Source of the DNA: Defluviicoccus sp.
Lineage (GTDB): Bacteria > Pseudomonadota > Alphaproteobacteria > MPNO01
DNA length: 64,000 nucleotides
Assembly (NCBI GenBank): GCA_028820505.1
Contig: JAPPIT010000034.1
Span: 25,565-89,564, forward strand
Direction of reading: 5' to 3'
In this document: positions 6,996 to 38,842 of the stretch, in pieces
Position numbering within the stretch: the first letter of the stretch is position 1
Layout: every line of letters starts with the position of its first letter
The notes under the pieces: model-generated
Databases searched by the model: none
The model's input: only the letters and a program-made list of their open reading frames with translations
What the model was told of the DNA's origin: nothing
Made by a program: the position numbers and the translations under genes

Positions 6996-7298
6996 ACCGC
7001 GAAGGATCGCACAGGGGCCGAGTTCTAAGATTTTTTCGGATCCGAGGCTTTTGCCGCCCGTTTTCGAACCCCCCTGAATCGGGAGTTCGATGGTTTTGGA
7101 TCGCCGAGATTATGGAGCCACAAGTCGAGTTCCGGCCACCGCCGGGAGAATGAGCCAGAAATTCCGATAAAAGCGGGTGAGCGATTATCGAACTCCGCGT
7201 GTCTGCGACAAGAATTAGAACGAATTTACTATGACCTTTCTTCGCAATCCTCCAACTGTGCTGTCACCGCCCGTTTCGGTTGATTCGCCGACGCACCC

Positions 7299-19699: not shown

Positions 19700-21022
19700 C
19701 TATGATACTACGCCGCACAGATCGAGCGCGGTCAGCGCGTAGACCTTCGACAGGGCAAGCAGATCGTCGACCGCCATCGGCCGCCGGTCTCCCGCGAGCC
19801 CACCGCCGAGAAACGCGGAGCGCGCACGCCCGCCATAGCAGACGGCGGGGATTCCCGCCTCGTTGAACGCGTTGGTGTCCCGCCAGGTGCTTATCGGACC
19901 GGACTCCGCGAATTCCATCGCCTCGTCGAAAACGCGCCGGTGCGCGCGGCCCAGCGCCTCGCCCAACGGGTCCGCGTCCTCGGCGAGATAGCCCCGCCGA
20001 TAGTCGTAGGGCGAGACCTCGCAATCCAGCCCCGTCGCGCCTAGTGTCCGCCGCACCCGGTCGAGAATCTCCGCCGGTCGGGCACCGGGCACGAGGCGCA
20101 CGTCGAAGAACACGTTGCAGCTATCGGAAACCTCGGTGAAGGGGAGGCCGCCCGCCGCCACCTCGCAAACCTGGGCGCGGGGCACGATCGTTCCCTTTCC
20201 GAAGTCGAGCGCGTCGGTTGTCTCGTAGTCCGTCGCCCAGGACTCGAGCGCCGAAATCACATGGGCCGCGCGCTCGAAGGGGTTGGGGTTGTCGCCGGGC
20301 GTCTCGCCGCGGATCAGAAGCGGCGTATAGCGCAGATGGCCGGGTACGGCGATCCGGAGCCGGAGATAGCCGGCCTGGCCCAGACCGAGCTTGAAGTCGG
20401 TGATTTCGCCGACAAGCGCGTAGTCGGCGACGATCCCGTGCTCGACCAGCCAGCGCGCGCCGTGACCCTCCCGCACCTGGCTCATGCGCGGCCCGATTCC
20501 GGACCAGCCCTCGATCTCCTCGCCGCGCTCCGGCGGAGCGCCGGTTTCCTGGGCGACTCCTGTAACGTAGAGGGTCTCGCGGAGCCGAAATCCCGCCCGG
20601 ACAATGGTGCGCATGGCGATCATCTGCGCGGCGAGCTGGGCTTTGTCGTTGGCGAGCCCGTTGCCGAACAGGAGCCCGTCCTGCTCGTGCGCGCCGCGCA
20701 GCCGCCGCTCCTCCTCCGCCCCGGCGGCGGGTGCCGCGCCCTGCGTGTCCATGTGGGCGTTGAGAATCAGCGAGCGGGCGCCGCCCGACCGATCGCCGGT
20801 GCCGCGCAGGATCCCGACGGCATTGGCGCTGGCCGCGTCGATCCGCTGCAGCCGGGTTTCGATCCCCGCCTCGTCGAGCCACGCTTCGACCGCCTGGGCG
20901 ACCGCGATTTCGTCTCCGGCGTAATCGCGCGCATTGCCGAGGCTGAGGCAAAGCTCGACCAGCTCCTGCCTCTGCCCGTCGACGATTTCGATGACCCGAT
21001 CCGCGAGCGCCGTCGCTTCCAC
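19700..21022 (-). CDS. M20-family metallo-amidohydrolase/peptidase (ArgE/DapE/CPG2-like)
   Basis: M20 signature around LNAHMDT and the dimerisation domain; start uncertain: GTG at 21022 (GAGGGA SD), alternative GTG at 21037; the track start at 21163 is unsupported. Confidence 0.7.
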   Translation of the reverse strand: MEATALADRVIEIVDGQRQELVELCLSLGNARDYAGDEIAVAQAVEAWLDEAGIETRLQRIDAASANAVGILRGTGDRSGGARSLILNAHMDTQGAAPAAGAEEERRLRGAHEQDGLLFGNGLANDKAQLAAQMIAMRTIVRAGFRLRETLYVTGVAQETGAPPERGEEIEGWSGIGPRMSQVREGHGARWLVEHGIVADYALVGEITDFKLGLGQAGYLRLRIAVPGHLRYTPLLIRGETPGDNPNPFERAAHVISALESWATDYETTDALDFGKGTIVPRAQVCEVAAGGLPFTEVSDSCNVFFDVRLVPGARPAEILDRVRRTLGATGLDCEVSPYDYRRGYLAEDADPLGEALGRAHRRVFDEAMEFAESGPISTWRDTNAFNEAGIPAVCYGGRARSAFLGGGLAGDRRPMAVDDLLALSKVYALTALDLCGVVS

Positions 21023-21186
21023 CTCTCGATCCCTCACGAGTCGATTGCGTCGTCGAATATCTTGAACCCGCCAGCCCAAGACCGCCAGAGGCGGTTCACA
21101 CAAGTCCGGACGCCGGAGTAGTTTTCCATCGAGGCGATGCACCCCGACCCAGGCGGAAAACACGTTGCCCGGCGAGGAGACGAGAC

Positions 21187-22518
21187 ATGACGCACCCCCA
21201 GCTCGGGCCGGAACGGCAGGCGTGGTTCGACAGGGCCGTCTCCCTGATCGACGAGGAGCGCATCCACCGTCTGGCGTTCGAGCTCACCGCAATCCACAGC
21301 CCGACCGGACGCGAGCGCGCGGCAAGCGAATACATGGTGGCCCGGCTTGCCGAGGCGGGCCTCGAGTCCTGGTACCAGCCGATGGGCGAGGCATCGGGCA
21401 ACGCGGCCGCCAGGCTGCGGGGAAGCGGCGGCGGGCCGAGCCTGCTGCTCTACGCGCCGATAGACACCCATCTCGAGGCCGATCGGGAAACCGACATCCC
21501 GTGGGTCGGCCCCGGGCTCCGACAGGACATGGTTCCCGAGCCGGTGGTGCGCGACGGGCTGATCATCGGGCTCGGCGCCGCCAACCCCAAGGCGATGGTC
21601 GCCACCCAGACGGAAGCCGCCCGCGTGATCGCCGAGGCCGGCATCCCGCTCACCGGCGAGCTGCTGGTCGGGTTCGCCGGTGGCGGTATGCCGGTCGACC
21701 TCGCAGCGCCAGGAAACCGAGGACTGTCGGACGGCGTCTTCCACCTCCTGACCCGCGGCGTCCATGCCGATTTCGCGCTGGTCATGAAGCCGGGAAACGC
21801 GGTCTATTACGAGGAGCCCGGGCTATGCTGGTTCAAGGTGTCGGTCAGGGGCACGATGGGATATGCCGGAATCGCCCGAGGCGTTCCGGGCTTTCGCAGT
21901 TCGATCGTGCCGGCGGCGACGGTGATCGCCGAATTGGAAAACTGGCTCCCGGGCTATACCGAGCGCAACAGTTCGGGCCAGGTGATGCCGCAGGGCTGGT
22001 TGGCGGCGGTGCACGGCGGATGGCCCGATCGGGTGGCCTTTCCCTCAGCGACCACAGAAATCCATCTCGACATCCGCTGCAATCCGCGGACGCCGCCCGC
22101 GGATGTAGCCGCCCAGTTCGGCGCGGCGATCGACGACATCCGCGCGAACCATCCCGAATTCGATCTCGACTGGGAGATGACCGCGGCGATCCCCGGAGCG
22201 AGCACCGACCCGGACAGCTGGATCGTCCGGTCCGCGATCGCCGCGTGGGAGGCGGTCGAAGGACGAGCCCATGAGGCGCCGCGCCGGACCAGCGGCCAGA
22301 CCGACATCTCGACCATCCGCAATCTCGGCATCCCAACCGCGCGCACCGGCTGGGTCAGCGTGCCGGAAGCGACGCCCGAGGAATTCCGGGAGGGCTTGGG
22401 CGGCATGGGGGTCACCAGCGCCTCCGACCTCGCACATACCTGCCGAAAGCTGGTCTATTCCATCATCGACACTTGCACCCGGACGCGCGGGGAGGTGGGC
22501 TGCATCGGCAGGCCATGA
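21187..22518 (+). CDS. M20-family metallo-amidohydrolase/peptidase
   Basis: 443 aa; M20 motifs (LLLYAPIDTH…; GIG…); divergent from the other M20 gene. Confidence 0.8.
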   Translation: MTHPQLGPERQAWFDRAVSLIDEERIHRLAFELTAIHSPTGRERAASEYMVARLAEAGLESWYQPMGEASGNAAARLRGSGGGPSLLLYAPIDTHLEADRETDIPWVGPGLRQDMVPEPVVRDGLIIGLGAANPKAMVATQTEAARVIAEAGIPLTGELLVGFAGGGMPVDLAAPGNRGLSDGVFHLLTRGVHADFALVMKPGNAVYYEEPGLCWFKVSVRGTMGYAGIARGVPGFRSSIVPAATVIAELENWLPGYTERNSSGQVMPQGWLAAVHGGWPDRVAFPSATTEIHLDIRCNPRTPPADVAAQFGAAIDDIRANHPEFDLDWEMTAAIPGASTDPDSWIVRSAIAAWEAVEGRAHEAPRRTSGQTDISTIRNLGIPTARTGWVSVPEATPEEFREGLGGMGVTSASDLAHTCRKLVYSIIDTCTRTRGEVGCIGRP

Positions 22519-22672
22519 GGGTTCCTCCAATCCTGACCTTATCGAACGGTGGGCGGGCAACGATGGAATCCGCATCGATGACGCCGGTGTTTCGCGGGGG
22601 CAGGCCAACGAGGCGCGGCGCTTCGAGTTCGTCAAGGAACCGCTCACCGCTCCGGCGCTCGGGACGTCTTGA

Positions 22673-22990
22673 AAGCTAGCGCCGGCCGGCAAGCGGGATC
22701 GCCCGACCGGGAGGTCCGGGCCGGTCGAGCGCGTCATCTTCCACATTCCTGAGAACGGCTTCTGTGTGCTCAGGACCCGGGCGCGCGGCCATCGCGAGCT
22801 GGTGACCGTGGTCGGCCACGCCGCGACCGCACCCACGGCCAGGACTTCCGGGCGCGCTTCATCCGCACCGCCGCGCCCACTTCGGTGGAGGGCATCGAGA
22901 AGTATCTCGGTTCGGGCATGATCCAGGGCATCGGTCCGGTCTACGCCCGCAAGCTGGTCCGCGCGTTCGGCGACAAGGTGCGCGAGAAGT
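22673..22990 (+). pseudogene. remnant of the N-terminus of a RecD2-like (ATP-dependent RecD-like) DNA helicase
   Basis: Frame 2 encodes …PTGRSGPVERVIFHIPENGFCVLRTRARGHRELVTVVGHAA, then frame 1 encodes DRTHGQDFRARFIRTAAPTSVEGIEKYLGSGMIQGIGPVYARKLVRAFGDKV. Both match the conserved N-terminal region of alphaproteobacterial RecD2-type helicases, with about 15 residues missing and a frameshift at the junction. No start codon (in-frame TGA at 22670), and no helicase motifs follow. Confidence 0.6.
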
Positions 22991-23281
22991 CCACTTGCCG
23001 GGCTTGCGAGAAGATCAGCCAGCCGCCGGCGCCCCTCCACCCGACGCCGCAGGGCCGGCTGCGCCACGCCGACCGCCGGCTTGGGCCGGAAACCATCACT
23101 GGATCAGCGTTCGAGTTGGACAATGCGCCGGAGCAGGTCATTGGCATGGATACGTCGAAGTCGATGATCGGACCCGCGCCTGACGCCGAACGGCCTCCTG
23201 TCGGCCGGGCCCGGAATGCAGCGAAGTATGGAGGACGCAATCCAGAAATCCGCCTCGAATCTGTCTGTCCCGGACTTCGAT

Positions 23282-23374
23282 CTAGAAATATGCGACATGG
23301 AAGAAGGCGACCACCACGGCGACCGCGAGGACGACAAAGGGCAGAAAGGGCAGCAAATTTCGGAGGAAACGCAT
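23282..23374 (-). CDS. candidate 30-aa single-TM small protein (MRFLRNLLPFLPFVVLAVAVVVAFFHVAYF)
   Basis: ATG 5 nt after the TauE stop on the same strand; uniformly hydrophobic core flanked by charged ends; below the track size cut-off. Could be chance. Confidence 0.25.
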   Translation of the reverse strand: MRFLRNLLPFLPFVVLAVAVVVAFFHVAYF

Positions 23375-23382
23375 GGCGGTGC

Positions 23383-24474
23383 TTACAGCCTGAACGGCAA
23401 TTCCACGAAAAATGCAATGACATAAAGCGCACCGGCGAGACCGGTGATGCCTCCCAGCATCAGTTTCAGAAGATGCTCCGGAACGAAGCGCTGGGTCTTG
23501 GACGCGCACCACGCGCCGAGGATTCCGCCGGAAGCGGCGAAGCACCCCCACGCCCATTCGGGCGCGATGACCACGCCGGAATATCGGGGAACGACGACCG
23601 AATAGGTGAACAGCCCTACGGCGGACAGCACGATCACATATGGGATGGTGGCGGCGACGAGGACGTACATGGGCAGACGGTAGATCGCCGAGAAAATCGG
23701 CACCAGCAGGAACCCGCCGCCGACGCCGAGAGCGGAGGAAACGATGCCGACGGCCAATCCCGTCACCGTGAGCATCCGCTTGGAGATGCGCCAGCGCTCC
23801 CCCCAGTATTCTATGGTGATGCGGCCGGCGGCACGCGATGCGGTCACGATGGCTTCGTTCGCCGGGATGCCGGACGGCGTCTTGCCCTCGGCCTGTCGTT
23901 GCGCCGCCATCCGGTGGAACCTGGCTTCCAGCCCGGTGCCTGTCTTGCGCTCGCGATAGCCGCGGCCTGCTGCCAGGCAAAGGTGGGACCCGGCCACGAC
24001 AAGCGCGATACCGACGGCGAAAGTAAACGGTTCGACATCCGACAGGACGGACACCCGGATGAATGGGCCGATCAGCCCGCCGGCGATGCCACCGAGGCAA
24101 ACCCACTTGGCAAGGTCGAAATTGAACTGGCGGTTCCGCCGGAAGCCGAACAGCGCTCCGAACGGGTTGAGGAACGTGAGCAGCTGCGTGGTGGGCGTCA
24201 CGCTGGGCGCGGTGAACTGGAGGACGGACATCGTATATGGCAGGGCGAAAATCCCCGCCGCCTCGCCGACCACCGCCATGGTGTAGCCGGTCCAGAAACC
24301 CATCCAGATCAGATGCCAGATCGGAACCCGGACGCCGGCCAGCGGGAAAGGGGCATCGGCACCCGGCAGGAACCCGTGCTGCAATTCGGCCGCGACGAAA
24401 CCGAGCCCGAGGACGACCGCGATCAGGGGCAGTTGTTCTCTCAGGAACTCTTTCAGGATGGGGTGGGCGTTCAC
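23383..24474 (-). CDS. TauE/SafE (TSUP, DUF81) family membrane exporter, putative sulfite/sulfonate-anion exporter
   Basis: 363 aa with two 4-TM repeats carrying the G-rich motifs GVGGGFLLVP / GLAGALY typical of TSUP proteins, split by a cytoplasmic insert; last large gene of the LysR-divergent operon. Confidence 0.75.
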   Translation of the reverse strand: MNAHPILKEFLREQLPLIAVVLGLGFVAAELQHGFLPGADAPFPLAGVRVPIWHLIWMGFWTGYTMAVVGEAAGIFALPYTMSVLQFTAPSVTPTTQLLTFLNPFGALFGFRRNRQFNFDLAKWVCLGGIAGGLIGPFIRVSVLSDVEPFTFAVGIALVVAGSHLCLAAGRGYRERKTGTGLEARFHRMAAQRQAEGKTPSGIPANEAIVTASRAAGRITIEYWGERWRISKRMLTVTGLAVGIVSSALGVGGGFLLVPIFSAIYRLPMYVLVAATIPYVIVLSAVGLFTYSVVVPRYSGVVIAPEWAWGCFAASGGILGAWCASKTQRFVPEHLLKLMLGGITGLAGALYVIAFFVELPFRL

Positions 24475-24486
24475 TTGACCCGGATG

Positions 24487-25896
24487 TCAGGATCGATGGG
24501 AATCGCTCGGTCCGTGGAGACGAACGATATCGGCATCGTCGATCGACCGGATCCCCGTTTCCAAATGCTCCCGCGTGAACGCATCCATCGAGACGCCCAC
24601 GGGTTCGCCTCCGACCACCGCGGGGCGCCCGGCAACCACCGTCGCAACGATATTGGCCCGGTCGTAGTAACGCACCAGTTCCCACACGAAATCCCAGGAT
24701 GGCAGAACTTCCGGAGACTCCATTTCGAGGACCAGGAAATCCGCCTCCAGCCCCGGTTCGAGCGCGCCGGTGACCGCGCCGAGACCGGCCACCTGCGCCC
24801 CCGCCCTGGTCGCCGCATCGAGCCAGATCCAGCCGGCGCCGCAGGAAAAATCGTCGTTGGGCATCCCATAGGCCAGACGCTGACAGACCTCCGCCGCATC
24901 GAGCAGACGGAATGCGTCGTTGCGCGTGGCGTCGGTGCCGAGCCCGATGCGGATACCGCGGCGGGCGTAATCGAGGGCGGGGGCCACGCCGTTGCCCTTC
25001 CACTGGCTGGCCACCGGGTTGTAGGACACCGCGGTATCCGTATCGCCGAGGATGACGATTTCGTCGCCGGTGACCAGCGCCGCGTGGGCGATCAGCGTTG
25101 TCGGCCCGAGGGCGCCGAGCTTGTTGAGATATTCGATCGGTCGGCAGCCTTCCCGCTCGATACAGCGATGGACTTCCGGCGTGTGCTCATTGGCATGGAT
25201 CTGGAAGACGATGCCCCGTTCCGCGCAATAATCCGACAGGCATTTGATCATCTCGCCGCTGTTCGACTGCACGGTGCCGCAGGCAAGGGACGGCGTGACG
25301 TTGCGTCGCCTCGCCGTCCGCGCGACGTGGTCGTCGGCGGTTCGCAGCGCATCGTCGACGGTCGACGCGGCCGCCGGTTTCGTCGCGTCGGTCTCGAAAT
25401 CGGACAGGTCGTAGACTCCGGTCGACGAGACGAGCCGCAAACCGGTTTCCTCGGCGGCTCTCTGGATGGCGTCGGTGTGGTCGACGCCGCGGATGCCGTG
25501 ATCGACGATCGTCGTGAAACCGCCGCGCAGCGCCTCGAAGAAGGTCCATTTGGCGGCGATGTACGCTGTTTCGGGGGTCGACGCTTCCTCGAGCGGCATC
25601 CATATCCGCTTCCACATCTGGGCCGGCTCGCCGCAGGTGATCGCCTTGGCGAAGGGTTCGGTGACATGGTGATGGGTATCGACGAACCCGGGCACGATCG
25701 CCCGTTTCTCCAGGCGAATGGTCGGGATTTTCGGATCGACGGTTGACTCGCGCCCGGACGTGGGTTCGATGGCAAGAATCTTGCCGTTCTCGACCGCCAT
25801 GACCGCATCGCGGATCGGACCGTCCGGTCCCAGAATAAGGTCGGGGCGCAACGCGTACGCCCCGACCGAACCCAGACTCTCGAGACCGTGGGTCAC
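24487..25896 (-). CDS. amidohydrolase-superfamily metal-dependent hydrolase (ATZ/TRZ / cytosine-deaminase-like), paralog 1
   Basis: HxH metal motif (VDTHHHV), HANEH and GLGTD motifs; GTG start 25896..25894 overlaps the SBP stop (GTGA); about 45% identity by eye to the paralog at 28533..29963. Confidence 0.8.
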   Translation of the reverse strand: MTHGLESLGSVGAYALRPDLILGPDGPIRDAVMAVENGKILAIEPTSGRESTVDPKIPTIRLEKRAIVPGFVDTHHHVTEPFAKAITCGEPAQMWKRIWMPLEEASTPETAYIAAKWTFFEALRGGFTTIVDHGIRGVDHTDAIQRAAEETGLRLVSSTGVYDLSDFETDATKPAAASTVDDALRTADDHVARTARRRNVTPSLACGTVQSNSGEMIKCLSDYCAERGIVFQIHANEHTPEVHRCIEREGCRPIEYLNKLGALGPTTLIAHAALVTGDEIVILGDTDTAVSYNPVASQWKGNGVAPALDYARRGIRIGLGTDATRNDAFRLLDAAEVCQRLAYGMPNDDFSCGAGWIWLDAATRAGAQVAGLGAVTGALEPGLEADFLVLEMESPEVLPSWDFVWELVRYYDRANIVATVVAGRPAVVGGEPVGVSMDAFTREHLETGIRSIDDADIVRLHGPSDSHRS

Positions 25897-26867
25897 TTCA
25901 GATCGACCCGGTCGCTCGCCAGCGCCTTCAGGAATTCGCCGCGGAGAAACGGGCGGTAAAGCGCGCGCGTCGACTTGACGCCCTTGATCGAGCCCCGGCT
26001 CGCGATCCACGCGCCCTCGCGCACCATCAGGTCGAGAAGGTTCTCCTCCAGCGACATCCGATGGTGATAGTTGGACCAGGCGGCCTTGATGTAGTCCATC
26101 TTGAACCGGCCCTTGGTGACGCGGTCCACGGCCATCTGGCTTTCCGCGGGATCGGCCTTGACCAGCTTTTCTCCCTCCAACAGCGCCGCGAGCACTGCGC
26201 TTACTGTTTTCGGATTCTTGTCGATCATCTCCGCAGTGCCGGCAAAGATGAACCGCGTGCTGTAGTTGCTGATGCGGAATTCACGGTAACGGTCGCCGAG
26301 CGCTCGTTTGGCACCGCCGTAAAAGGACGGGAACATCGCCGCCGCATCGACATCGCCGCGGACCAGCGCCGAGACGATATCCGGCGGCGCGACATTGACG
26401 ATTTCGGCCGTCACGCCCGCCTTCTTCAACAGGTCGGAAAGCATGAAGTGGACGTTGGTTCCGATAGTCGTGCCGATCTTGTGGCCGGCCAGCGCCTTGA
26501 TCGATTTGAGGTCCACCTTCTCGTTGGAAATGATTCGGCCGGCTCGGTACTGGGACATCTCGGCCAGCACGCCGAACTTCAGACCCCGCATGGCCCCGAT
26601 CACCGCTGGAAACTCGGCCATCAGCGCGAAATCGAGCTGTCCCCCGATCATGGCCTCGAACGCGGACCGCCCGGTGCGGAACGGGATCGCCTTGGCCTCC
26701 AGCCCATGCTTCTTCCACAGATTCTTGTCGATCGCCTGGGTCATCTGGGGAACGTCCAGATAAGGCCCGCCGCCGATCGTGATCTTGGTCTCTTGCGCCG
26801 ACACCGACATCGTCGCGGCAGCGACGACGGCGAGGCCGGCCACCGTTCCTGTCGTTAACCTAAGCAT
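25893..26867 (-). CDS. ABC transporter substrate-binding protein, NitT/TauT (SsuA/TauA/NMT1-like) family
   Basis: 324 aa with signal peptide (…AAATMSVSAQE); NMT1/THI5-like SBP sequence. Confidence 0.8.
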   Translation of the reverse strand: MLRLTTGTVAGLAVVAAATMSVSAQETKITIGGGPYLDVPQMTQAIDKNLWKKHGLEAKAIPFRTGRSAFEAMIGGQLDFALMAEFPAVIGAMRGLKFGVLAEMSQYRAGRIISNEKVDLKSIKALAGHKIGTTIGTNVHFMLSDLLKKAGVTAEIVNVAPPDIVSALVRGDVDAAAMFPSFYGGAKRALGDRYREFRISNYSTRFIFAGTAEMIDKNPKTVSAVLAALLEGEKLVKADPAESQMAVDRVTKGRFKMDYIKAAWSNYHHRMSLEENLLDLMVREGAWIASRGSIKGVKSTRALYRPFLRGEFLKALASDRVDLK

Positions 26868-26940
26868 CTTCGGTCTCCTCGGTTTTGGTGTCCAGGTTAC
26901 GCACTCTCGCTACAGACTCTCCATTCCCGGCCCCTTCTCA

Positions 26941-27756
26941 TCATTCCGCGCTGTCGCCGGACTCGCCCGGCCGCAGAAGCCTCATGATCCGGTTTCGGTT
27001 ATTGAGGAAATCTTCGGTGACCTCGTCGACCTTCCTGGGGCGCGGCGTATCGACGTCGATCGATTCGACGATGCGCCCGGGCCCGGCCGACATCACATGC
27101 GCCCAATCCGAAAGCAGCAGCGCCTCGTCGACGTCGTGGGTCACGAACAGCACCGTCGCCCGATGCATGTCCCAGACACGCAGCAGGAGTTCCTGCATCG
27201 CGACGCGCGTCTGGGCGTCGAGGGCGCCGAAGGGTTCGTCCATCAGGAGGACCTTGGGTTCCGATGCAAAGGTCCTCGCGAGCGCCACCCGCTGCTTCAT
27301 GCCGCCGGATAGCTGCCCGGGGAAAGTTCTCGCCCGGTCTTCCAGCCCCACTTCGCGCAGCGCCTCGATGGCGCGGTCACGCCGTTCCGCCTTCGGCAAC
27401 TGCAGCCGTTTCAGGGCAAACTCGACGTTTCCGATCGCCGTGAACCAGGGGAACAGCGCATATTGCTGGAACACCACGCCGACCTCGGGGTTGATTCCGG
27501 TCACCATGTCTTGGTCGATCCTGATGGTGCCGCCGGAGATCGGAACGAAGCCGGCGATGGCGTTCAGTATTGTCGACTTGCCGCAGCCCGACGGCCCGAT
27601 GAGGGCAGTGAACGAACCCGGCTCCAGAATTAGATCGACGTTCTTCACCGCGTCGAGCGGCTCGCCGCCGGGCAGCTTGAAGGTGATCGTCAGGTCTTCG
27701 ATCTCGACCTTGCCTAAGCCGTTGGATGAGTCTGCGATGCCGGTCGGGTCGCTCAC
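26941..27756 (-). CDS. ABC transporter ATP-binding protein (NitT/TauT family)
   Basis: Walker A GPSGCGKST, LSGGMKQRVALAR, LLMDEP; GTG start overlaps the permease stop (ATGTGA). The track ORF of 531 aa is a read-through into the permease gene in another frame. Confidence 0.85.
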   Translation of the reverse strand: MSDPTGIADSSNGLGKVEIEDLTITFKLPGGEPLDAVKNVDLILEPGSFTALIGPSGCGKSTILNAIAGFVPISGGTIRIDQDMVTGINPEVGVVFQQYALFPWFTAIGNVEFALKRLQLPKAERRDRAIEALREVGLEDRARTFPGQLSGGMKQRVALARTFASEPKVLLMDEPFGALDAQTRVAMQELLLRVWDMHRATVLFVTHDVDEALLLSDWAHVMSAGPGRIVESIDVDTPRPRKVDEVTEDFLNNRNRIMRLLRPGESGDSAE

Positions 27757-28508
27757 ATCTGCTCCCAGTGAACCAGCTTGTTGCCGACGACGACGAAGAA
27801 CTGGTCGAGCAGGGCGCCGAGGATGCCAAGCTCGATCAACCCGACGAACATCCGGTCGGTGCGGACATAGTCGCGGGCGTCCTGCAGCCTGAACCCGATC
27901 CCGGCGGACGCGCCGGAAAGTTCCGCCGCAACCAGGGAGAGAAACGCCAGCGCCGCGCCCAGCCGCAGCCCGACGACGATATGCGGGGCCGCCGCCGGGA
28001 TGATCACCTCGAAGAACTCGCGGGTCCGCCGCGCCCCGAGAGAGCGCGCGGCGCGGATATAGGTCAGCGCGACGTGCGCGGTCCCGTGGTGAGTGTTGAG
28101 CCACACCGCCAGGAAAACCGTATAAGCGATGACGAAGTATTTCGATCCTTCGCCGATGCCGAACCACACGATCGCCACCGGCACCAAGGCGATCGCGGGA
28201 ATGGGTCTCAGGAGATTGAGAAACGGCCCGAGCGCGTATGCGAACAACCGGGTCCGCGCGGTCATCAGCCCGACCAGGATGCCGAGGCTGGCACCGATCA
28301 GGAATCCGACGGCCGCCCGCCCCAGCGACACGGCGAGGTCGCTGAACAGGATGCCGTCGTCGTATAGTTCCAACGCGGCGATGAACACCGCATGCGGCGT
28401 CGGGAACAGCTCTTGGCTGATCAGACCCGACACCGCGACCAGCCACCAGACGATCGTCACGCCGATCAACGATAATGCCACGTTGAGAACTCTTCCGAGC
28501 GGTTTCAT
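27753..28508 (-). CDS. ABC transporter permease (NitT/TauT family)
   Basis: 251 aa, 6 TM segments, EAA loop (…RAARSLGARRTREFFEVIIPAAAP…). Confidence 0.85.
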   Translation of the reverse strand: MKPLGRVLNVALSLIGVTIVWWLVAVSGLISQELFPTPHAVFIAALELYDDGILFSDLAVSLGRAAVGFLIGASLGILVGLMTARTRLFAYALGPFLNLLRPIPAIALVPVAIVWFGIGEGSKYFVIAYTVFLAVWLNTHHGTAHVALTYIRAARSLGARRTREFFEVIIPAAAPHIVVGLRLGAALAFLSLVAAELSGASAGIGFRLQDARDYVRTDRMFVGLIELGILGALLDQFFVVVGNKLVHWEQM

Positions 28509-28532
28509 CGTTTCGGTGTTTCCCTTCGCCGC

Positions 28533-29963
28533 TCACGCGGTCCCTCTGCGGCCGCGCGCGGCGCGATGCTTGGCCGACGTTCCGTGGCGTCGGACGATGG
28601 GCGCGTCACGGACCGTCCGAATCGCCGCCGGCAGCTGATCCTTGAGAAAACGATCCTGGTCCCAGCCGGTGGCCCGCCCGTCCTGCATGACCATGGCCCC
28701 ATCGATCACCACCGCCCTGATCTGATCGCGATTGTAGTGACGCACGAGGTCCCATTCGAAGTCCCAGGACGGAAGGACTTCGGGGGCCTCCATGTCGAGA
28801 AGAAGGAAATCGGCGCGGCAGCCCGGCGCCAGGCGGCCGGCGACGTCGGCCAGGCCCGAGACGTCGGCGCTGCCCTTCGTGGCGGCATCCACCCAGGTCC
28901 AGCCGGCGCCGCACGAGAAATCGTTCACCCGCATTCCGAACGCGATTCGCTGGCAGCTCTCCGCCGCGTCCAGCATCCGGAAACCGTCGCTGCGCGTGCT
29001 GTCCGTTCCGAGACCCAGCCGGACTCCCCGTTCGACATAGGTGCAGGCCGGCGACACGGCATCGCCCTTCCAGTGCGAGGCGACAGGGTTGTAACTGACC
29101 GCGCTTTCCGTCGAACGGATGAGTTCGATTTCGGACTCCGTCACGAGAGTCCCGTGATGCAGCAGCGTATGGCGGCCCAGCGCGCCGCAATCGGCGATGA
29201 ACTCTATCGGGCGGCGGCCATGCTCGACGACGCTCGCGTGGACTTCCGGAATGTGCTCGTTGGCGTGAATCTGGAACAGGGCGTTCCGTTCCGCGCAGAA
29301 ACCGGCCAGCTCCCCGATCAGCTCCTTCGAAGCCCCTTCCACGCCGGAAACGCACAAAGACGGGTAGATGCCGGGTTCGCGCTCGCAAAGCGCCATGTGG
29401 TCCTCGGCCCGCTTCAAGGCCTCGTCGATGTGTTTCAGACCCGAACCGCTACCCGAACCATCCGGTTCGACCGGCCGGTTTACGGCGCCCGTGCTCGAGA
29501 CCAGGCGTACCCCGGTTTCGCGCGCCGCCCGGTGGATGGCTTCGGTCTTCTCGCGGTTGATGATCGCGAAGTTCACGACCCCGGTGAAACCGCCGCGCAG
29601 GGCTTCCAGGAACATCCATTTGGCGCATACGTAGCTGAGCTCCGGATCGAGCCGGCCTTCCAGGGGAATCCAGATTCGCCGCCATATCTGGGACGGCTCG
29701 CCGCCGATGATCGATTTCCCGAAACCCTGCCCGAGATGGATATGCGCGTCGATGAATCCCGGAATGACGGCCCGGCCCGGGAGCGGCACGACATCGGTCC
29801 GTGGATGGGTTTGCGCGAATTCCGCTCGGTCGGCGACGGCGGCAATCGCCCCGTTCTCGACCAGCATGACGACGTTTTCTCTGGCACCATCGGGGGCAAG
29901 GAGCAGATCGGGCGCAATGGCGTAGCGCTGCGCCGCGAAGATATCCGCCATCGCGGTACTCAT
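28533..29963 (-). CDS. amidohydrolase-superfamily metal-dependent hydrolase, paralog 2
   Basis: IDAHIHLGQ (HxH), HANEH, GLGTD and a C-terminal block near-identical to paralog 1 (VSYNPVASHWKG…NDFSCGAGWTWVDAAT…ADFLLLDMEAPEVLPSWDFEWDLVRHY); start set at ATG 29963 so the N-terminus aligns with paralog 1 (YAIAPDLLLAPDG vs YALRPDLILGPDG). The track's longest ORF starts at TTG 30062. Confidence 0.8.
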   Translation of the reverse strand: MSTAMADIFAAQRYAIAPDLLLAPDGARENVVMLVENGAIAAVADRAEFAQTHPRTDVVPLPGRAVIPGFIDAHIHLGQGFGKSIIGGEPSQIWRRIWIPLEGRLDPELSYVCAKWMFLEALRGGFTGVVNFAIINREKTEAIHRAARETGVRLVSSTGAVNRPVEPDGSGSGSGLKHIDEALKRAEDHMALCEREPGIYPSLCVSGVEGASKELIGELAGFCAERNALFQIHANEHIPEVHASVVEHGRRPIEFIADCGALGRHTLLHHGTLVTESEIELIRSTESAVSYNPVASHWKGDAVSPACTYVERGVRLGLGTDSTRSDGFRMLDAAESCQRIAFGMRVNDFSCGAGWTWVDAATKGSADVSGLADVAGRLAPGCRADFLLLDMEAPEVLPSWDFEWDLVRHYNRDQIRAVVIDGAMVMQDGRATGWDQDRFLKDQLPAAIRTVRDAPIVRRHGTSAKHRAARGRRGTA

Positions 29964-30095
29964 CGCCTTCGGTAGCGGCGCGGAGAATGCCGTTCCATCG
30001 CCTTGGTGCCGATGCTGCATGCCGTCCATTGATGTTACAGTGAAACAATCCATAGATTCCAATAAAGGATTTTTGCTAGTCTATAGTTTGTTTCT
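29964..30095. promoter_or_regulatory. AT-rich divergent promoter/operator region between the LysR gene and the amidohydrolase-ABC-TauE operon
   Basis: Locally AT-rich (about 70% AT) within a 65%-GC context; inverted repeat ATAGA(30052-30056)-N23-TCTAT(30080-30084) plus the palindrome CTATAG at 30081-30086; classical position for LTTR autoregulatory and activation sites. Confidence 0.45.
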
Positions 30096-31031
30096 ATGAA
30101 TATCGAAATTGGCCGATCAATGAATTTTCGGCAACTGGAGTGTTTCAGGCAGACTCTCGCCACTGGGACAGTGACCGGTGCGGCCAAGGCGATGGGGATT
30201 TCCCAGCCTTCGGCGAGCATTCTCGTCGCAAACTTGGAACGCGAACTCGGCTTCGCTCTCTTCAAGCGGATCAACGGTCGCCTGTCGGCGACACCCGAAG
30301 CTCAATATTTGTGGCGCGACGTCGAGCGGACGCTCGAGAGCGTGGAGCTCACCATCCAACGCGCCCGGCAGATCCGCGACCAGCAATTCGGCAACCTCGT
30401 CGTCGCCACCTATCCGGACATCGCGGTCGATTTCCTGCCCCGCATCGTCAGCGACTTTCGCGCCGATCGCCCCGACTTGCAGGTTCGAATCCTCGCCCGC
30501 CGCTCGCAGATGATGCAGGGGCTGTTGCCTACCCAACTCTACGACCTCGCCATCGTCGAATGGCCGATCGAACTTGTCTCGGTCGAGGTCGAAGAGTTCG
30601 TTTTCCCTTGCGTTTGCGGATTGCCGGAAGGCCACGCGCTGGCCGATCGGCCTTCCATCGGACCGGCCGATCTCGACGGGGAGCCGTTCGTCTCCCTGTT
30701 GCCCGAACATATGGTCTATCCGCAGACCGAAAGCGCGTTCGCGGCCCATGGTGCGTCCTGGAATATCGCGATCGAAACCCAGACCATGGAATCGGTATCC
30801 GCGTTTATTCGTCACGGTGCCGGGGTCGGGCTGCTCGATCCGTTCACGGCACAACGATATGCACGCGACGGCATCGCCGTCCGCCGGTTCGATGCGACGA
30901 TCAGCTACAGGATCGCCCTGGTCTTCCCGCGCGACAGGCTCCGTTCCGTCATCCTCGGTTCCTTCGCAGAAAAATTGCGCGCGGCATTCGAGTCCGTGAA
31001 GCGGATCGGCAATCCGCAGGCGCCTGGCTAG
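30096..31031 (+). CDS. LysR-family transcriptional regulator
   Basis: N-terminal HTH (MNFRQLECFRQTLATGTVTGAAKAMGISQPSASILVANLERELGFALF) and C-terminal LysR substrate-binding domain; divergent from the operon; alternative start at 30120. Confidence 0.85.
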   Translation: MNIEIGRSMNFRQLECFRQTLATGTVTGAAKAMGISQPSASILVANLERELGFALFKRINGRLSATPEAQYLWRDVERTLESVELTIQRARQIRDQQFGNLVVATYPDIAVDFLPRIVSDFRADRPDLQVRILARRSQMMQGLLPTQLYDLAIVEWPIELVSVEVEEFVFPCVCGLPEGHALADRPSIGPADLDGEPFVSLLPEHMVYPQTESAFAAHGASWNIAIETQTMESVSAFIRHGAGVGLLDPFTAQRYARDGIAVRRFDATISYRIALVFPRDRLRSVILGSFAEKLRAAFESVKRIGNPQAPG

Positions 31032-31047
31032 GCAGGTCCGGCCTGCC
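31031..31047 (+). terminator. possible weak intrinsic terminator after the LysR gene
   Basis: GGCAGG-tccgg-CCTGCC hairpin starting at the last base of the stop codon, followed 18 nt later by a short T-run (tcgtttcgg). Confidence 0.25.
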
Positions 31048-31385
31048 CCGGCCGGGCTGAGTGTCGTTTCGGAGATCCCCGGAGCTTCGATTTCTGCGGC
31101 GAAATTTCGCGGCGCTGTCGCTCGACCTCGTGTTCGCGAACTTGAGCGGCGACGCGCCTCTCTCAGCGCAGCGCATGGCGGATCGCCGGCCCGGACACCG
31201 CCGCACCCCACTCGATCCTTGCCGCCGTGAGCGGCGGACCCGCACCACCCGGCTCCGGTCCGCCGCCGGGACCGGTCTGCAATCCGGCTGGCTCAACCAC
31301 GATCCGGCTGCGGCCACGCTTCATCAGATAACCGCCGCGTGGGATCTTCAGGACCCTGTGTTCGACCGGCGACCGCAGCTGACAG

Positions 31386-32996
31386 CTATAACAGGATTCC
31401 GATCCTCTTGCTCAGACTGAGGTAGTTCCAACCGTCTTTGTGCCGGTAGCGCAAATCGTCGACATATGTGCGTACCAGATGCAGACCGAGACCTTCCACG
31501 ATCGTTTCTTCCTCAATCGTGTCCGGACCGGGCTGCAACATGAAAGAATCGGGGCTCAGTTCACCGCCCCGATTCACGAAGCGGATTGCAAGGCTCCGCT
31601 CTTCGTCGCCCATCTCAAGGTGGACCTCGATCCCGTGCGTGCCGACATCGTCATGGCTGCGCTCCACGATGTACATGATCGTCTCTTCGACACAGAGCTG
31701 TATCTGGAACCGGTCCGGTTGCGGAAGCCCGTGCTGCTCGGCGAAATCGTCGATCGCCTCCGCGACCCGCTCCATCTCACCGCGGACCTCGCGCACGGTC
31801 AGGCTGAAGCTTCGGGCCGGTGCCGAGGACGAGTCCGAGCGATTCGCGGCTGTCGACGTCCCCTCGCGGCCCTTTTCCGTCCGGAGTCCTGTCCGCCGCG
31901 CGCCGGACGTTCCATCCCCGCGCACGAGTGCGCTCAACGCCGCGGCATCAATCGCCGGTGTTGTCGACTTGGGTGGCCAGCTCCGGTCCCCGGCCTTCAC
32001 GACCAAGCTCTTGATCGCTTTCCTCAGATCGACCACCAGCGGCGTCTGCCGCAGGACGTCGAATGTCCGCGAATGCTCCGGGAGGCACAGATGCCGGTAG
32101 AGCATCTGATAGGACACGACGTCATCGGCGGCGAGGTCGAACACGTCCATCGGCGAAGCCGGGTCTTCCGGCGAAAGCCCCGCGGCGCGGAGCAGGGCGG
32201 CGAGCGCCCCGCGGCTTATCCGGTCTTCGTCGAACCCGTCCTCTACTCTGTGCAGGGCGCCCATCATGGCGAGGTAGTTTGAGTTCAGCGGCTGGCTGAA
32301 GCTCCACAGCGGGCGCGTCGGGTTGGTGAGGTAGCGACGCTCACCGCCGCGGTGAGGCCGCAGCAGGGCGGCGTTGCGATGGGGAAAGCGGTCGAACAGG
32401 AGCAAGGTTTCCGAGTGCTCGATCGCGCCCTTCACAAACGACCAGCCGACGAACTGGTTGATCCTGCGCCGCTCGGCCGGCGCCTCCGCGACGAGGTCGG
32501 CGCTCATGCGCGCCGTCTTCTCGACGCAGAGCTCTTGCAGTTTCAGATCCTCCATGTGGCACAGGGGAAAATATATCCAGAGCCGCTCGATGGGGTTGTA
32601 GTGCGCCAGCTCCCGATCCGCCTCGCAGGCCTGCCGGGACAGCGAAGCGGCCACGAGATCGTTCGCGTAGGCCAGAGCCGTGCCGCGATAGACGCATCGC
32701 GGAAACTGGTCGAGGACGATCAGTTTCGCCAGAACGCCCTGCGGCGTGTCCCAGACCGGATCGTCGAAAAACCGCTCCACCCCCTCGCGGTGCATCTGGT
32801 CACACCACATGCGTTGCGCCCGGAGAGCGTTCGGATCCACGGTGTTTCTGGCGAACGGTCCGGCCCGCCACCGTCGCATCGCCTGCCGCCAGTTCTCGCG
32901 GGAAGCGTCGGCCGGCGACCGCAAGCGACCGAGCCAGAATTCCAGCACCGCCTCCGGAGAGCGTTCCGCAATGCCAAGGTGCTCGACGGCGCTCAT
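31386..32996 (-). CDS. DUF924-domain protein fused to a C-terminal HATPase_c anti-sigma-factor-type Ser/Thr kinase-like domain
   Basis: N-terminal half carries DUF924 hallmark blocks (LIVLDQFPRCVYRG…; FPLCHMEDLKLQELCV). The C-terminal about 130 aa resemble RsbW/SpoIIAB-type GHKL domains (…LCVEETIMYIVE…GLGLHLVRTYVDD…). They are joined by a low-complexity S/T/A-rich linker in one continuous 536-codon frame; SD GGGAGAAG upstream of the ATG at 32996. Confidence 0.55.
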   Translation of the reverse strand: MSAVEHLGIAERSPEAVLEFWLGRLRSPADASRENWRQAMRRWRAGPFARNTVDPNALRAQRMWCDQMHREGVERFFDDPVWDTPQGVLAKLIVLDQFPRCVYRGTALAYANDLVAASLSRQACEADRELAHYNPIERLWIYFPLCHMEDLKLQELCVEKTARMSADLVAEAPAERRRINQFVGWSFVKGAIEHSETLLLFDRFPHRNAALLRPHRGGERRYLTNPTRPLWSFSQPLNSNYLAMMGALHRVEDGFDEDRISRGALAALLRAAGLSPEDPASPMDVFDLAADDVVSYQMLYRHLCLPEHSRTFDVLRQTPLVVDLRKAIKSLVVKAGDRSWPPKSTTPAIDAAALSALVRGDGTSGARRTGLRTEKGREGTSTAANRSDSSSAPARSFSLTVREVRGEMERVAEAIDDFAEQHGLPQPDRFQIQLCVEETIMYIVERSHDDVGTHGIEVHLEMGDEERSLAIRFVNRGGELSPDSFMLQPGPDTIEEETIVEGLGLHLVRTYVDDLRYRHKDGWNYLSLSKRIGILL

Positions 32997-37828: not shown

Positions 37829-38842
37829 TCAGCGCCCTTTCACCAGCGGCATCACTTCGGCGGCGAAGGTCTCCAGCCCCTCCTTCATCGGGTAGAAGTG
37901 CACCATCGGGCAGTCGATGCCGATCGACTCGAAGTAGCGCAGGCGGTCGGCGACCTGGCGGGGCGTGCCGACGAGCCCCGCGCCGAGCCCCTTGGCGGCG
38001 ACCGCCGAGACCGGGTCGCGGCTGCCGTACTCTTCGAGCTCCCGGACCCGTTCCTCGGCCTCGCTCGCGCTCTCGGTACAGATGACGTGCGCGCTGATGC
38101 CGTAGGAGAGCGATCTGCCGTACGATTCCGCCCGCCGGTCGAGGTCCTCGATGTCGCGGGCCAGGCGGGCGATGTTGGCCTCTGCGTTGGCGTAGCCCGG
38201 ATCGTAGGCCACGAACCACACGTCGCAGGCGCGCGCCGCTACCTCCTTGCCCGCCTCGGACCGGCTGGCGGCATAGATCGGCGGGTTGGGAAGCTGGACC
38301 GGCCTGATGGGCAACCGACCCGATCGGCAGCGGTAGAATTCGCCGTCGAGGGTGAATGTCTCCTCGGTCCACAACCCCTTCATCACGTCGACGAACTCCC
38401 CCATGCGGCGATAACGATCGTCGGACCGGTCGAGCCAGCCGCCATTGCCGAAGACGTCGAACTCCTCCTCGTACCAGCCGTTGACCACGTTGACCGCGAA
38501 GCGCCCGCCGCTGATCCGGTCGAGCGAGGCCCCCATTTTGGCGGCGAGCTGGGGTGAGACGATGCCGGGGTGCACGGCACACATGAGCTCGATCCGGCTG
38601 GTGTGGGCGATGAGGGCGGCGGTCAATATCCACGCCTCCAGATCGGGGCCGAGATGGCGTTCGGCGATCAGCGTGGTCTCGAATCCCAGCGCCTCGGCGC
38701 GCCGGACGATGTCGACCGCGATCCGGAACGACCTGTCGGCGTCGCCGCCGGCGCCCGGCGTCCGGAGGTCGGAGACGGCATCCGCCATGGCGTCGTCGCT
38801 GCGCACCGTGTGCGGCAGCGGGGTCCAGATTCCGTATCGCAT
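37829..38842 (-). CDS. LLM-class (luciferase-like) flavin-dependent monooxygenase/oxidoreductase
   Basis: 337 aa, MRYGIWTP… N-terminus and TIM-barrel LLM sequence pattern. Confidence 0.85.
   Translation of the reverse strand: MRYGIWTPLPHTVRSDDAMADAVSDLRTPGAGGDADRSFRIAVDIVRRAEALGFETTLIAERHLGPDLEAWILTAALIAHTSRIELMCAVHPGIVSPQLAAKMGASLDRISGGRFAVNVVNGWYEEEFDVFGNGGWLDRSDDRYRRMGEFVDVMKGLWTEETFTLDGEFYRCRSGRLPIRPVQLPNPPIYAASRSEAGKEVAARACDVWFVAYDPGYANAEANIARLARDIEDLDRRAESYGRSLSYGISAHVICTESASEAEERVRELEEYGSRDPVSAVAAKGLGAGLVGTPRQVADRLRYFESIGIDCPMVHFYPMKEGLETFAAEVMPLVKGR

Follow-up and report, generated by a model that had tools for sequence, protein, structure and literature searches.

What compound is handled by an operon that combines two paralogous amidohydrolases with a NitT/TauT-type importer and a TauE/SafE-type membrane protein? 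The question is raised by a locus in a stretch of 64,000 nucleotides from Defluviicoccus sp. (contig JAPPIT010000034.1, positions 25,565 to 89,564; hereafter the window). We tentatively propose, at a little short of an even chance, that it is a LysR-activated nitrogen-scavenging operon, which would import an amino-substituted N-heterocycle, deaminate it hydrolytically in two steps and export the oxo-product. The substrate is most likely s-triazine-like (of the ammeline or ammelide type) or nucleobase-like, judging by the genomic surroundings of related sequences.

The operon consists of seven closely packed minus-strand genes, divergent from a lysR gene; a preliminary description of the sequence had given the same layout, and its coordinates agree with the map of open reading frames (ORFs), the translations and the reading of the junctions. 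The first gene encodes AH2 (28533-29963; 476 aa), a metal-dependent amidohydrolase of the TRZ/ATZ type (cog0402). It is followed by the genes for an ATP-binding cassette (ABC) permease of the NitT/TauT family (27753-28508; 251 aa; Pfam BPD_transp_1), an ABC ATPase (26941-27756; 271 aa; Pfam ABC_tran), whose GTG start lies in the permease's ATGTGA, and an NMT1/THI5-like periplasmic binding protein (SBP; 25893-26867; 324 aa; Pfam NMT1 and NMT1_2) with a signal-peptide-like N-terminus. The gene for AH1 (24487-25896; 469 aa), a second TRZ/ATZ-type amidohydrolase and paralog of AH2, starts with a GTG that overlaps the SBP stop. The last two genes encode a long-form TSUP (TauE/SafE) membrane protein (23383-24474; 363 aa; Pfam TauE) and its partner, the 30-aa single-transmembrane peptide MRFLRNLLPFLPFVVLAVAVVVAFFHVAYF (23282-23374). 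Of the six junctions from AH2 to the peptide, read from the sequence, the second and the fourth are GTGA overlaps, and the others are gaps of 24, 73, 12 and 8 nt, in that order. Scans for consensus promoters and terminators in the operon gave results at chance level and are uninformative on co-transcription. Rfam has no match in the window, and none in the operon or its leader at E <= 1, so no riboswitch is recognized in the leader.

The same eight genes, peptide included, occur in identical order in a contig of a Defluviicoccus metagenome-assembled genome (L001) and in an unrelated metagenome contig (L095), where the 4-nt ATPase/permease overlap is also called. Nucleotide collinearity with the window covers 23294-31187 in L001 and 23294-30965 in L095 and ends there, giving a block of 7.9 kb. 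The flanks differ among the three sequences, and a phage-type integrase lies near the block in L095. Because the flanks differ and the collinearity stops, the unit is exactly lysR through the small peptide. AH1 and AH2 are found together in no fewer than three gene orders: that of the window, L001 and L095; permease-Crp-ATPase-SBP-AH2-TSUP-AH1 (L009 and L051); and AH2-permease-ATPase-SBP-AH1 (a JGI contig). The arrangement is therefore conserved in other genomes, a point that the preliminary description had left to a gene-neighborhood comparison. A megablast search of the block against plasmids returned short matches to the ABC ATPase only.

The divergent LysR protein (30096-31031, plus strand; 311 aa; Pfam HTH_1 and LysR_substrate) is 92% identical to that of L001 and has a counterpart in L095; orthologs with a median identity of 46% are divergent from AH2 in operons that contain AH2 only. 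Its two domains, the divergent operon and a T-N11-A type box identify it as a LysR-type transcriptional regulator. The intergenic region between lysR and AH2 is 132 bp long, and the operator region (30050-30098) combines an ATAG-N7-CTAT box, a second conserved element and an ATAGA-N23-TCTAT repeat. The last of these, which had been put forward as the operator, is indeed present as a single copy in the window (30052-30084; 0.01 expected by chance), but the better-conserved LysR box is ATAG-N7-CTAT. This box, at 30081-30098, overlaps the lysR start codon, occurs once in the 64 kb and is found in all eight related LysR/AH2 intergenic regions examined, very AT-rich marine loci included. The second element, TATTGGAATCTAT on the minus strand at about 30050-30064, recurs in the compared intergenic regions in the form ..ATCTTCTAT, 20-25 nt beyond the box toward AH2. 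The operator blocks are invariant in a three-way alignment of the window, L001 and L095. Conservation of the box supports the predicted control of the operon by LysR, and the earlier claim of a LysR-controlled operon is borne out by the conserved gene block and operator. The regulator would bind the ATAG-N7-CTAT box, repress its own gene and activate the operon in the presence of the substrate.

The two amidohydrolases are indeed paralogs, as had been claimed, with 49% identity from end to end (E = 7e-166). Both belong to Pfam Amidohydro_1 (AH2 129.6 bits, AH1 133 bits; cut-off 25). The HxH, HxxE, His and Asp residues required for metal binding and catalysis are kept in both enzymes and are invariant in a 22-sequence alignment; they are found as H74-x-H76-x-x-Q, H233-x-x-E236, H270 and D321 in AH2, and as H75-H-H77-x-x-E, H234-x-x-E237, H271 and D322 in AH1. 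Neither protein reaches an NCBIfam equivalog cut-off, the best scores being 154 bits for AH1 (cut-off 522) and 143 bits for AH2 (cut-off 362). The subfamilies missed include guanine deaminase, 8-oxoguanine deaminase, 5'-deoxyadenosine/methylthioadenosine (MTA) deaminase, HutF, SsnA and N-ethylammeline chlorohydrolase. The best sequence match in the PDB has an E-value of about 1e-26. Profile searches, which the preliminary description had proposed for this purpose, thus place AH1 and AH2 in no characterized subfamily. Neither the PDB matches (E <= 1e-10) nor the top 50 Foldseek matches include a chain named AtzC, with no direct alignment to AtzC having been made.

An AlphaFold (AF2) model of AH1 (pLDDT 85.9) retrieves MTA/adenosine, isocytosine and guanine deaminases, AtzA, TrzN and HutF in Foldseek, with similar scores, TM-scores of 0.74-0.85 and about 20% identity. 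From sequence and model together, the fold and chemistry of these enzymes are clear, and their specificity is not. The family has signatures of its own, GEPxQ[IM]W and DFSCGAGW. After strand 1 the motif is HHHxxEPFaK in AH1 and HxHxxQxFGK in AH2 and in the two further clades, C and D, described below. Positions 133, 212, 270 and 302 (AH1 numbering) are fixed within each clade and differ between clades; the first three are located at or just past the C-terminal ends of barrel strands in the AH1 model, where enzymes of the amidohydrolase superfamily contact their substrates. These clade-specific positions, and the difference between HxHxxQ and HHHxxE, would fit two differing specificities of AH2 and AH1.

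Of the candidates scored in a protein search over 5.8 billion sequences, 995 were relatives at E <= 1e-20. The clades were defined with 93 sequences from 88 loci, in which all ORFs were clustered and the recurrent clusters annotated. The rooting of the neighbor-joining tree was skewed by one outlier, and clades are compared here by mean inter-clade distances only. Five clades were obtained: AH1 (n=23), AH2 (n=20), C (n=32), D (n=14) and E (n=3). Best-hit comparison assigns separate sets of orthologs to AH1 and AH2, and their sequences indicate two old orthologous clades within an uncharacterized TRZ/ATZ (cog0402) branch. Clade C is the nearest clade to AH2, at a mean distance of 0.87, and lies at 1.00 from AH1. 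Clades C and D likewise fail the NCBIfam subfamily cut-offs.

Four of the five clades (AH1, AH2, C and D) each have a characteristic neighborhood. Type A operons, of the AH1 clade, read permease-ATPase-SBP-AH1, with or without a TSUP gene, and carry Crp or GntR regulators. A Crp/FNR-type regulator gene lies on the same strand between the permease and ATPase genes in four loci (L005, L009, L024 and L051), an unusual site. In another locus (L003:7795-10678) an AH1-clade gene stands beside a very divergent second amidohydrolase (22-26% identity), and the opposite strand carries genes for an ABC transporter and for an amidase resembling allophanate hydrolase. Type B operons, of the AH2 clade, have LysR divergent from AH2-permease-ATPase-SBP-TSUP.

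In type C the order is ATPase-SBP-amidohydrolase-AtzD, followed in some cases by BiuH and AtzF. The clade C amidohydrolase gene stops 3 nt upstream of the AtzD (cyanuric acid hydrolase) ORF, and the neighbors exceed their NCBIfam equivalog cut-offs (AtzD 475 > 360, BiuH 419 > 370, allophanate hydrolase 709 > 511). Metagenome operons of the full order through AtzF, several of them marine, are found at L052:5374-15294 and L062:2618-12030 and in L057, L060, L063-L065 and L068-L070. Type D consists of an NCS2 permease of the xanthine/uracil type, in place of the ABC importer, followed by the amidohydrolase and a TSUP gene, under a LacI regulator; the same arrangement is annotated on Ensifer and Sinorhizobium megaplasmids. 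On the Sinorhizobium medicae plasmid pMl3 (L093, 6457-10368) and the Ensifer sp. PDNC004 plasmid (L094, 6474-11090), a LacI-type regulator is divergent from a uracil-xanthine permease and an amidohydrolase, with TauE in some cases.

The transporter of the window is related to those of the other ABC-linked types. Its permease, which lies nearest the SaoP, SsuC and TauC models without reaching their cut-offs, shares 64-75% identity (group medians) with its counterparts in type A, type B and clade C operons; for clade C the group medians are about 64% for the permease and about 60% for the ATPase. The SBP has a median identity of 57% to type B, 40% to type A and 38% to clade C. Since the SBP and LysR are both closest to type B, the operon of the window resembles one of type B in which AH1 was gained between SBP and TSUP.

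The window TSUP protein scores 96.3 bits with Pfam TauE (cut-off 32.6) and has no NCBIfam match. Compared with the usual TSUP proteins of 235-258 aa, it carries in the alignment an N-terminal extension of ~45 aa and a central loop insert of ~50 aa. This long form is widespread and conserved, with 60-99% identity among the 120 best matches listed. A 31-aa ORF follows the long TSUP gene in L001, L095, L098, L099 and L100, with the invariant pattern L-P-x-L-P-F-x-V-L..A...A..H, and no Pfam or NCBIfam family matches the peptide. The 30-aa gene proposed earlier is therefore real. In three loci (L098:7001-8218, and 7001-8232 in both L099 and L100) the long TSUP and the peptide are the last two genes of operons that contain no amidohydrolase; they are preceded by an 81-aa ORF, a protein of 444 aa that matches neither Pfam nor NCBIfam models, and a GcvT-like aminomethyltransferase. 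Because the pair recurs in amidohydrolase-free operons, the long TSUP and the peptide form a reusable two-gene unit, a conserved pair that seems to be undescribed. In L100, the genes for the selenocysteine machinery proteins SelA and SelB are situated just upstream.

By sequence, the TSUP proteins adjoining AH enzymes form four clusters, of which one is the long form and three are short forms. A TSUP gene is present in all four AH1+AH2 loci, in seven of eight clade D loci and in 1 of 14 clade C loci; counting loci with enough downstream sequence, it is present in 5 of 11 AH2-only and 4 of 11 AH1-only loci. Both a TSUP gene and Atz genes are present in one locus, TSUP only in 20 and Atz only in nine (Fisher p = 0.03, uncorrected for phylogeny).

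We propose the following sequence of events. The NMT1-type binding protein and the ABC transporter would import an amino-substituted N-heterocycle. AH2 and AH1, presumably acting one after the other, would be separately active zinc or iron deaminases, each hydrolyzing one exocyclic amino (amidine) group and freeing ammonia. The oxo-heterocycle formed, a weak acid such as cyanurate, may then be expelled by the long TSUP protein with its 30-aa membrane partner. Expulsion of the ring product is suggested because no ring-opening enzyme is encoded in the block; by tblastn, the 64-kb window contains no homolog of AtzD, BiuH, AtzF or NCS2, and the AtzD-BiuH-AtzF cluster is confined to the clade C relatives. 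The probable link to s-triazines follows from the position of clade C next to AtzD, BiuH and AtzF and from the common transporter family, and the possible link to nucleobases from the association of clade D with an NCS2 permease. Both links are inferred from relatives rather than from the enzymes of the window itself. The preliminary description had offered, as one of its readings, that an N-heterocycle is deaminated twice in succession, and it is this reading that the evidence favors.

Several points weigh against this proposal. Neither Foldseek nor NCBIfam can discriminate among deaminase specificities in these sequences and models. The triazine link depends on a sister clade whose sequences are just 43-46% identical to AH1. 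An atzD gene may be present in the genome outside the window. The anticorrelation between TSUP and ring-cleavage genes is weak (p = 0.03), uncorrected for phylogeny and dependent on short contigs. Since the long TSUP and peptide also occur after a GcvT-like gene, in operons free of amidohydrolases, the pair may carry some more general cargo instead of the deaminated ring. LysR has a TauD-family neighbor in one related locus with an amidohydrolase, an ABC transporter and a long TSUP; together with the GcvT context, this leaves some doubt about the cargo of the TSUP protein.

One alternative is more probable than the others, although we consider it unlikely. The enzymes may act as proposed while the TSUP protein and its peptide serve as a second importer or meet a general need, for example for an anion or a metal cofactor, that unrelated operons have in common. 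The amidohydrolase-free operons of L098-L100 are compatible with this view, and the functions of TSUP proteins are poorly defined. A second importer, however, would duplicate the uptake already provided by the ABC or NCS2 system, and a cofactor role would leave the scarcity of TSUP genes in the ring-cleavage operons of clade C unexplained. The recruitment of four TSUP subfamilies to the AH family also argues against it.

A sulfonated or otherwise anion-releasing nitrogen compound had been suggested earlier as the substrate. An amidino- or N-acyl-taurine, for example, would enter through a sulfonate-type ABC importer, and sulfite would leave through TauE. The Pfam matches to TauE and NMT1 are in line with this suggestion, as are the nearest transporter models (SsuC and TauC for the permease; the SsuA family; a taurine ATPase), the TauD neighbor mentioned above and an SsuD/SfnG-like monooxygenase 7 kb away in the window (37829-38842). 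However, all the sulfonate-specific models score far below their cut-offs. The SBP reaches 97 bits against 163.5 for the SsuA family (TIGR01728) and 39 against 304 for TauA (TIGR01729), and its best PDB match, SsuA, has an E-value of only 5.6e-10. The syntenic module (23294-31187) contains no desulfonating enzyme (SsuD, TauD or Xsc), and the monooxygenase lies outside it. Furthermore, relatives with a related transporter feed a cyanuric acid hydrolase and its partners BiuH and AtzF, or use a nucleobase permease of the NCS2 family. The NMT1 family also includes binding proteins for nitrate, bicarbonate and pyrimidine precursors. The genomic context of the TSUP gene likewise argues against sulfite as its probable cargo. 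A sulfonate substrate is thus improbable, and this part of the preliminary description is not upheld.

The other suggestion made there, that AH1 and AH2 form a heteromeric enzyme, is equally doubtful in its obligate form, in which the two subunits would catalyze a single reaction. Both genes share an operon across several arrangements, and their C-terminal block is near-identical. However, complete operons with AH2 only (L028, L030, L034, L036 and L044) or AH1 only (L002, L005, L010, L017 and L019-L023) are common. An obligate heteromer is unlikely for this reason, and the enzymes would be able to work alone or in series. Moreover, each paralog retains the full catalytic set, and characterized cog0402 enzymes are homo-oligomers. 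It is very improbable that AH1 and AH2 are duplicated housekeeping deaminases (guanine, cytosine, 8-oxoguanine, MTA or 5'-deoxyadenosine), which are their top NCBIfam and Foldseek neighbors, but whose equivalog cut-offs lie 3-5 fold above the scores and whose structures are ~20% identical, a dedicated, regulated and transporter-linked module in varied genomic contexts being unusual for salvage genes.

How does the proposed deamination operon compare with known systems? The TRZ/ATZ (cog0402) enzymes, among them AtzA, TrzN, TriA, the guanine, 8-oxoguanine/isocytosine and MTA/5'-deoxyadenosine deaminases and HutF, share the (beta/alpha)8 fold and the catalytic residues. The predicted chemistry, in which water displaces an amino group from an sp2 carbon, is also alike. 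In contrast, the AH family is only ~20% identical to the solved members, no subfamily cut-off is reached by AH1, AH2, C or D, and the family has its own signatures and comprises four or more clades, every one of them linked to a transporter. In s-triazine mineralization, melamine is converted through ammeline and ammelide to cyanuric acid (TriA, GuaD, TrzC/AtzC), which is then processed by AtzD, BiuH and AtzF; the atzDEF genes are under the LysR-type regulator AtzR. The Pseudomonas sp. ADP and melamine systems carry out successive hydrolytic deaminations with paralogous amidohydrolases and have a divergent LysR regulator. The window resembles these pathways in its predicted serial deaminations and divergent LysR, and the clade C genes are physically linked to those for AtzD, BiuH and AtzF. 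Conversely, AH1 and AH2 are not orthologs of TriA/AtzA, AtzB or AtzC, and the window has no ring-cleavage genes and instead a NitT/TauT-type importer and a TSUP protein.

The importer has the composition of SsuABC, TauABC and NrtABC, with one NMT1-type SBP, one permease and one ATPase. It differs in that its matches are below cut-off and in that its partners, within the family, are deaminases and cyanurate or nucleobase genes rather than sulfonate monooxygenases or dioxygenases. With the TauE/SafE exporters the TSUP protein shares the Pfam TauE domain and the two-repeat topology, and in taurine and sulfoacetate systems a TSUP gene ends the catabolic operon, as in the window. Here, however, the protein is of the long form and always has the 30/31-aa transmembrane peptide behind it, and none of the genes encodes an enzyme that produces sulfite. 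Deaminase operons of the TRZ/ATZ type governed by LysR are a known kind of system; the family-wide coupling of AH enzymes to transporters and TSUP proteins seems to be undescribed. We found no curated model, solved structure or full-text-searchable paper describing the AH family or this operon arrangement, in agreement with the earlier statement that no characterized pathway has this architecture.

A wider and more speculative reading, which we regard as somewhat unlikely, extends the proposal to the whole AH family. Its at least four clades would be transporter-coupled modules that deaminate amino-triazine- or nucleobase-like compounds and either expel or mineralize the product, with clade C making cyanuric acid and with a reusable two-component TSUP efflux system. 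If so, clade C would be the missing natural producer of cyanuric acid for AtzD, BiuH and AtzF. AH2 and AH1 of the window would harvest two amino nitrogens while the oxo-ring leaves through the long TSUP protein and its 31-aa subunit, an efflux module that would also serve other catabolic operons.

Genes for cyanuric acid hydrolase are widely distributed among bacteria of soil and sea. To our knowledge, little has been established about what feeds these hydrolases in nature, or about which enzyme makes cyanurate beyond the herbicide plasmids. A transporter-linked deaminase family directly upstream of AtzD, BiuH and AtzF is a concrete candidate for this natural source. The two-enzyme version of the window would illustrate how bacteria, here a Defluviicoccus-like wastewater organism, may draw nitrogen from these compounds while leaving the ring closed. 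The pair of long TSUP and 31-aa peptide gives access to the function of a large transporter family that is still little understood, and the peptide is an example of the small membrane proteins often missed by annotation. When genomes are annotated, the labels "TauE" and "NitT/TauT" should not be taken to indicate sulfonate metabolism. The rhizobial hosts of clade D (L093 and L094) are genetically tractable and could be used for probing the function of the family.

Further features were noted near the operon and its relatives. Two adjacent M20 genes beyond the peptide, at 19700-21163 (minus strand) and 21187-22518 (plus strand), were considered as components, since M20 genes also neighbor relatives in L009 and L011. 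They were rejected because they give weak ArgE/DapE-like matches and lie outside the syntenic module. The M20 genes of L009 and L011 are of another type, carbamoylase, ErtE-like or allantoate amidohydrolase-like. The ~760 bp that separate the stop of the peptide gene from the convergent M20 gene (22519-23281) have a lower GC content (0.61), no convincing ORF and no Rfam match. A cluster of luciferase-like monooxygenases present in five loci was rejected as a component, as it is heterogeneous (SfnG-like and NtaA/DmoA-like). Also nearby and outside the syntenic block, in addition to the SsuD/SfnG-like monooxygenase, are an HsaD/BphD-like hydrolase and a DUF924-HATPase fusion. The latter is a 536-aa ORF on the minus strand (31386-32996), with an N-terminal DUF924 and an HATPase_c_2 (anti-sigma kinase-like) domain.

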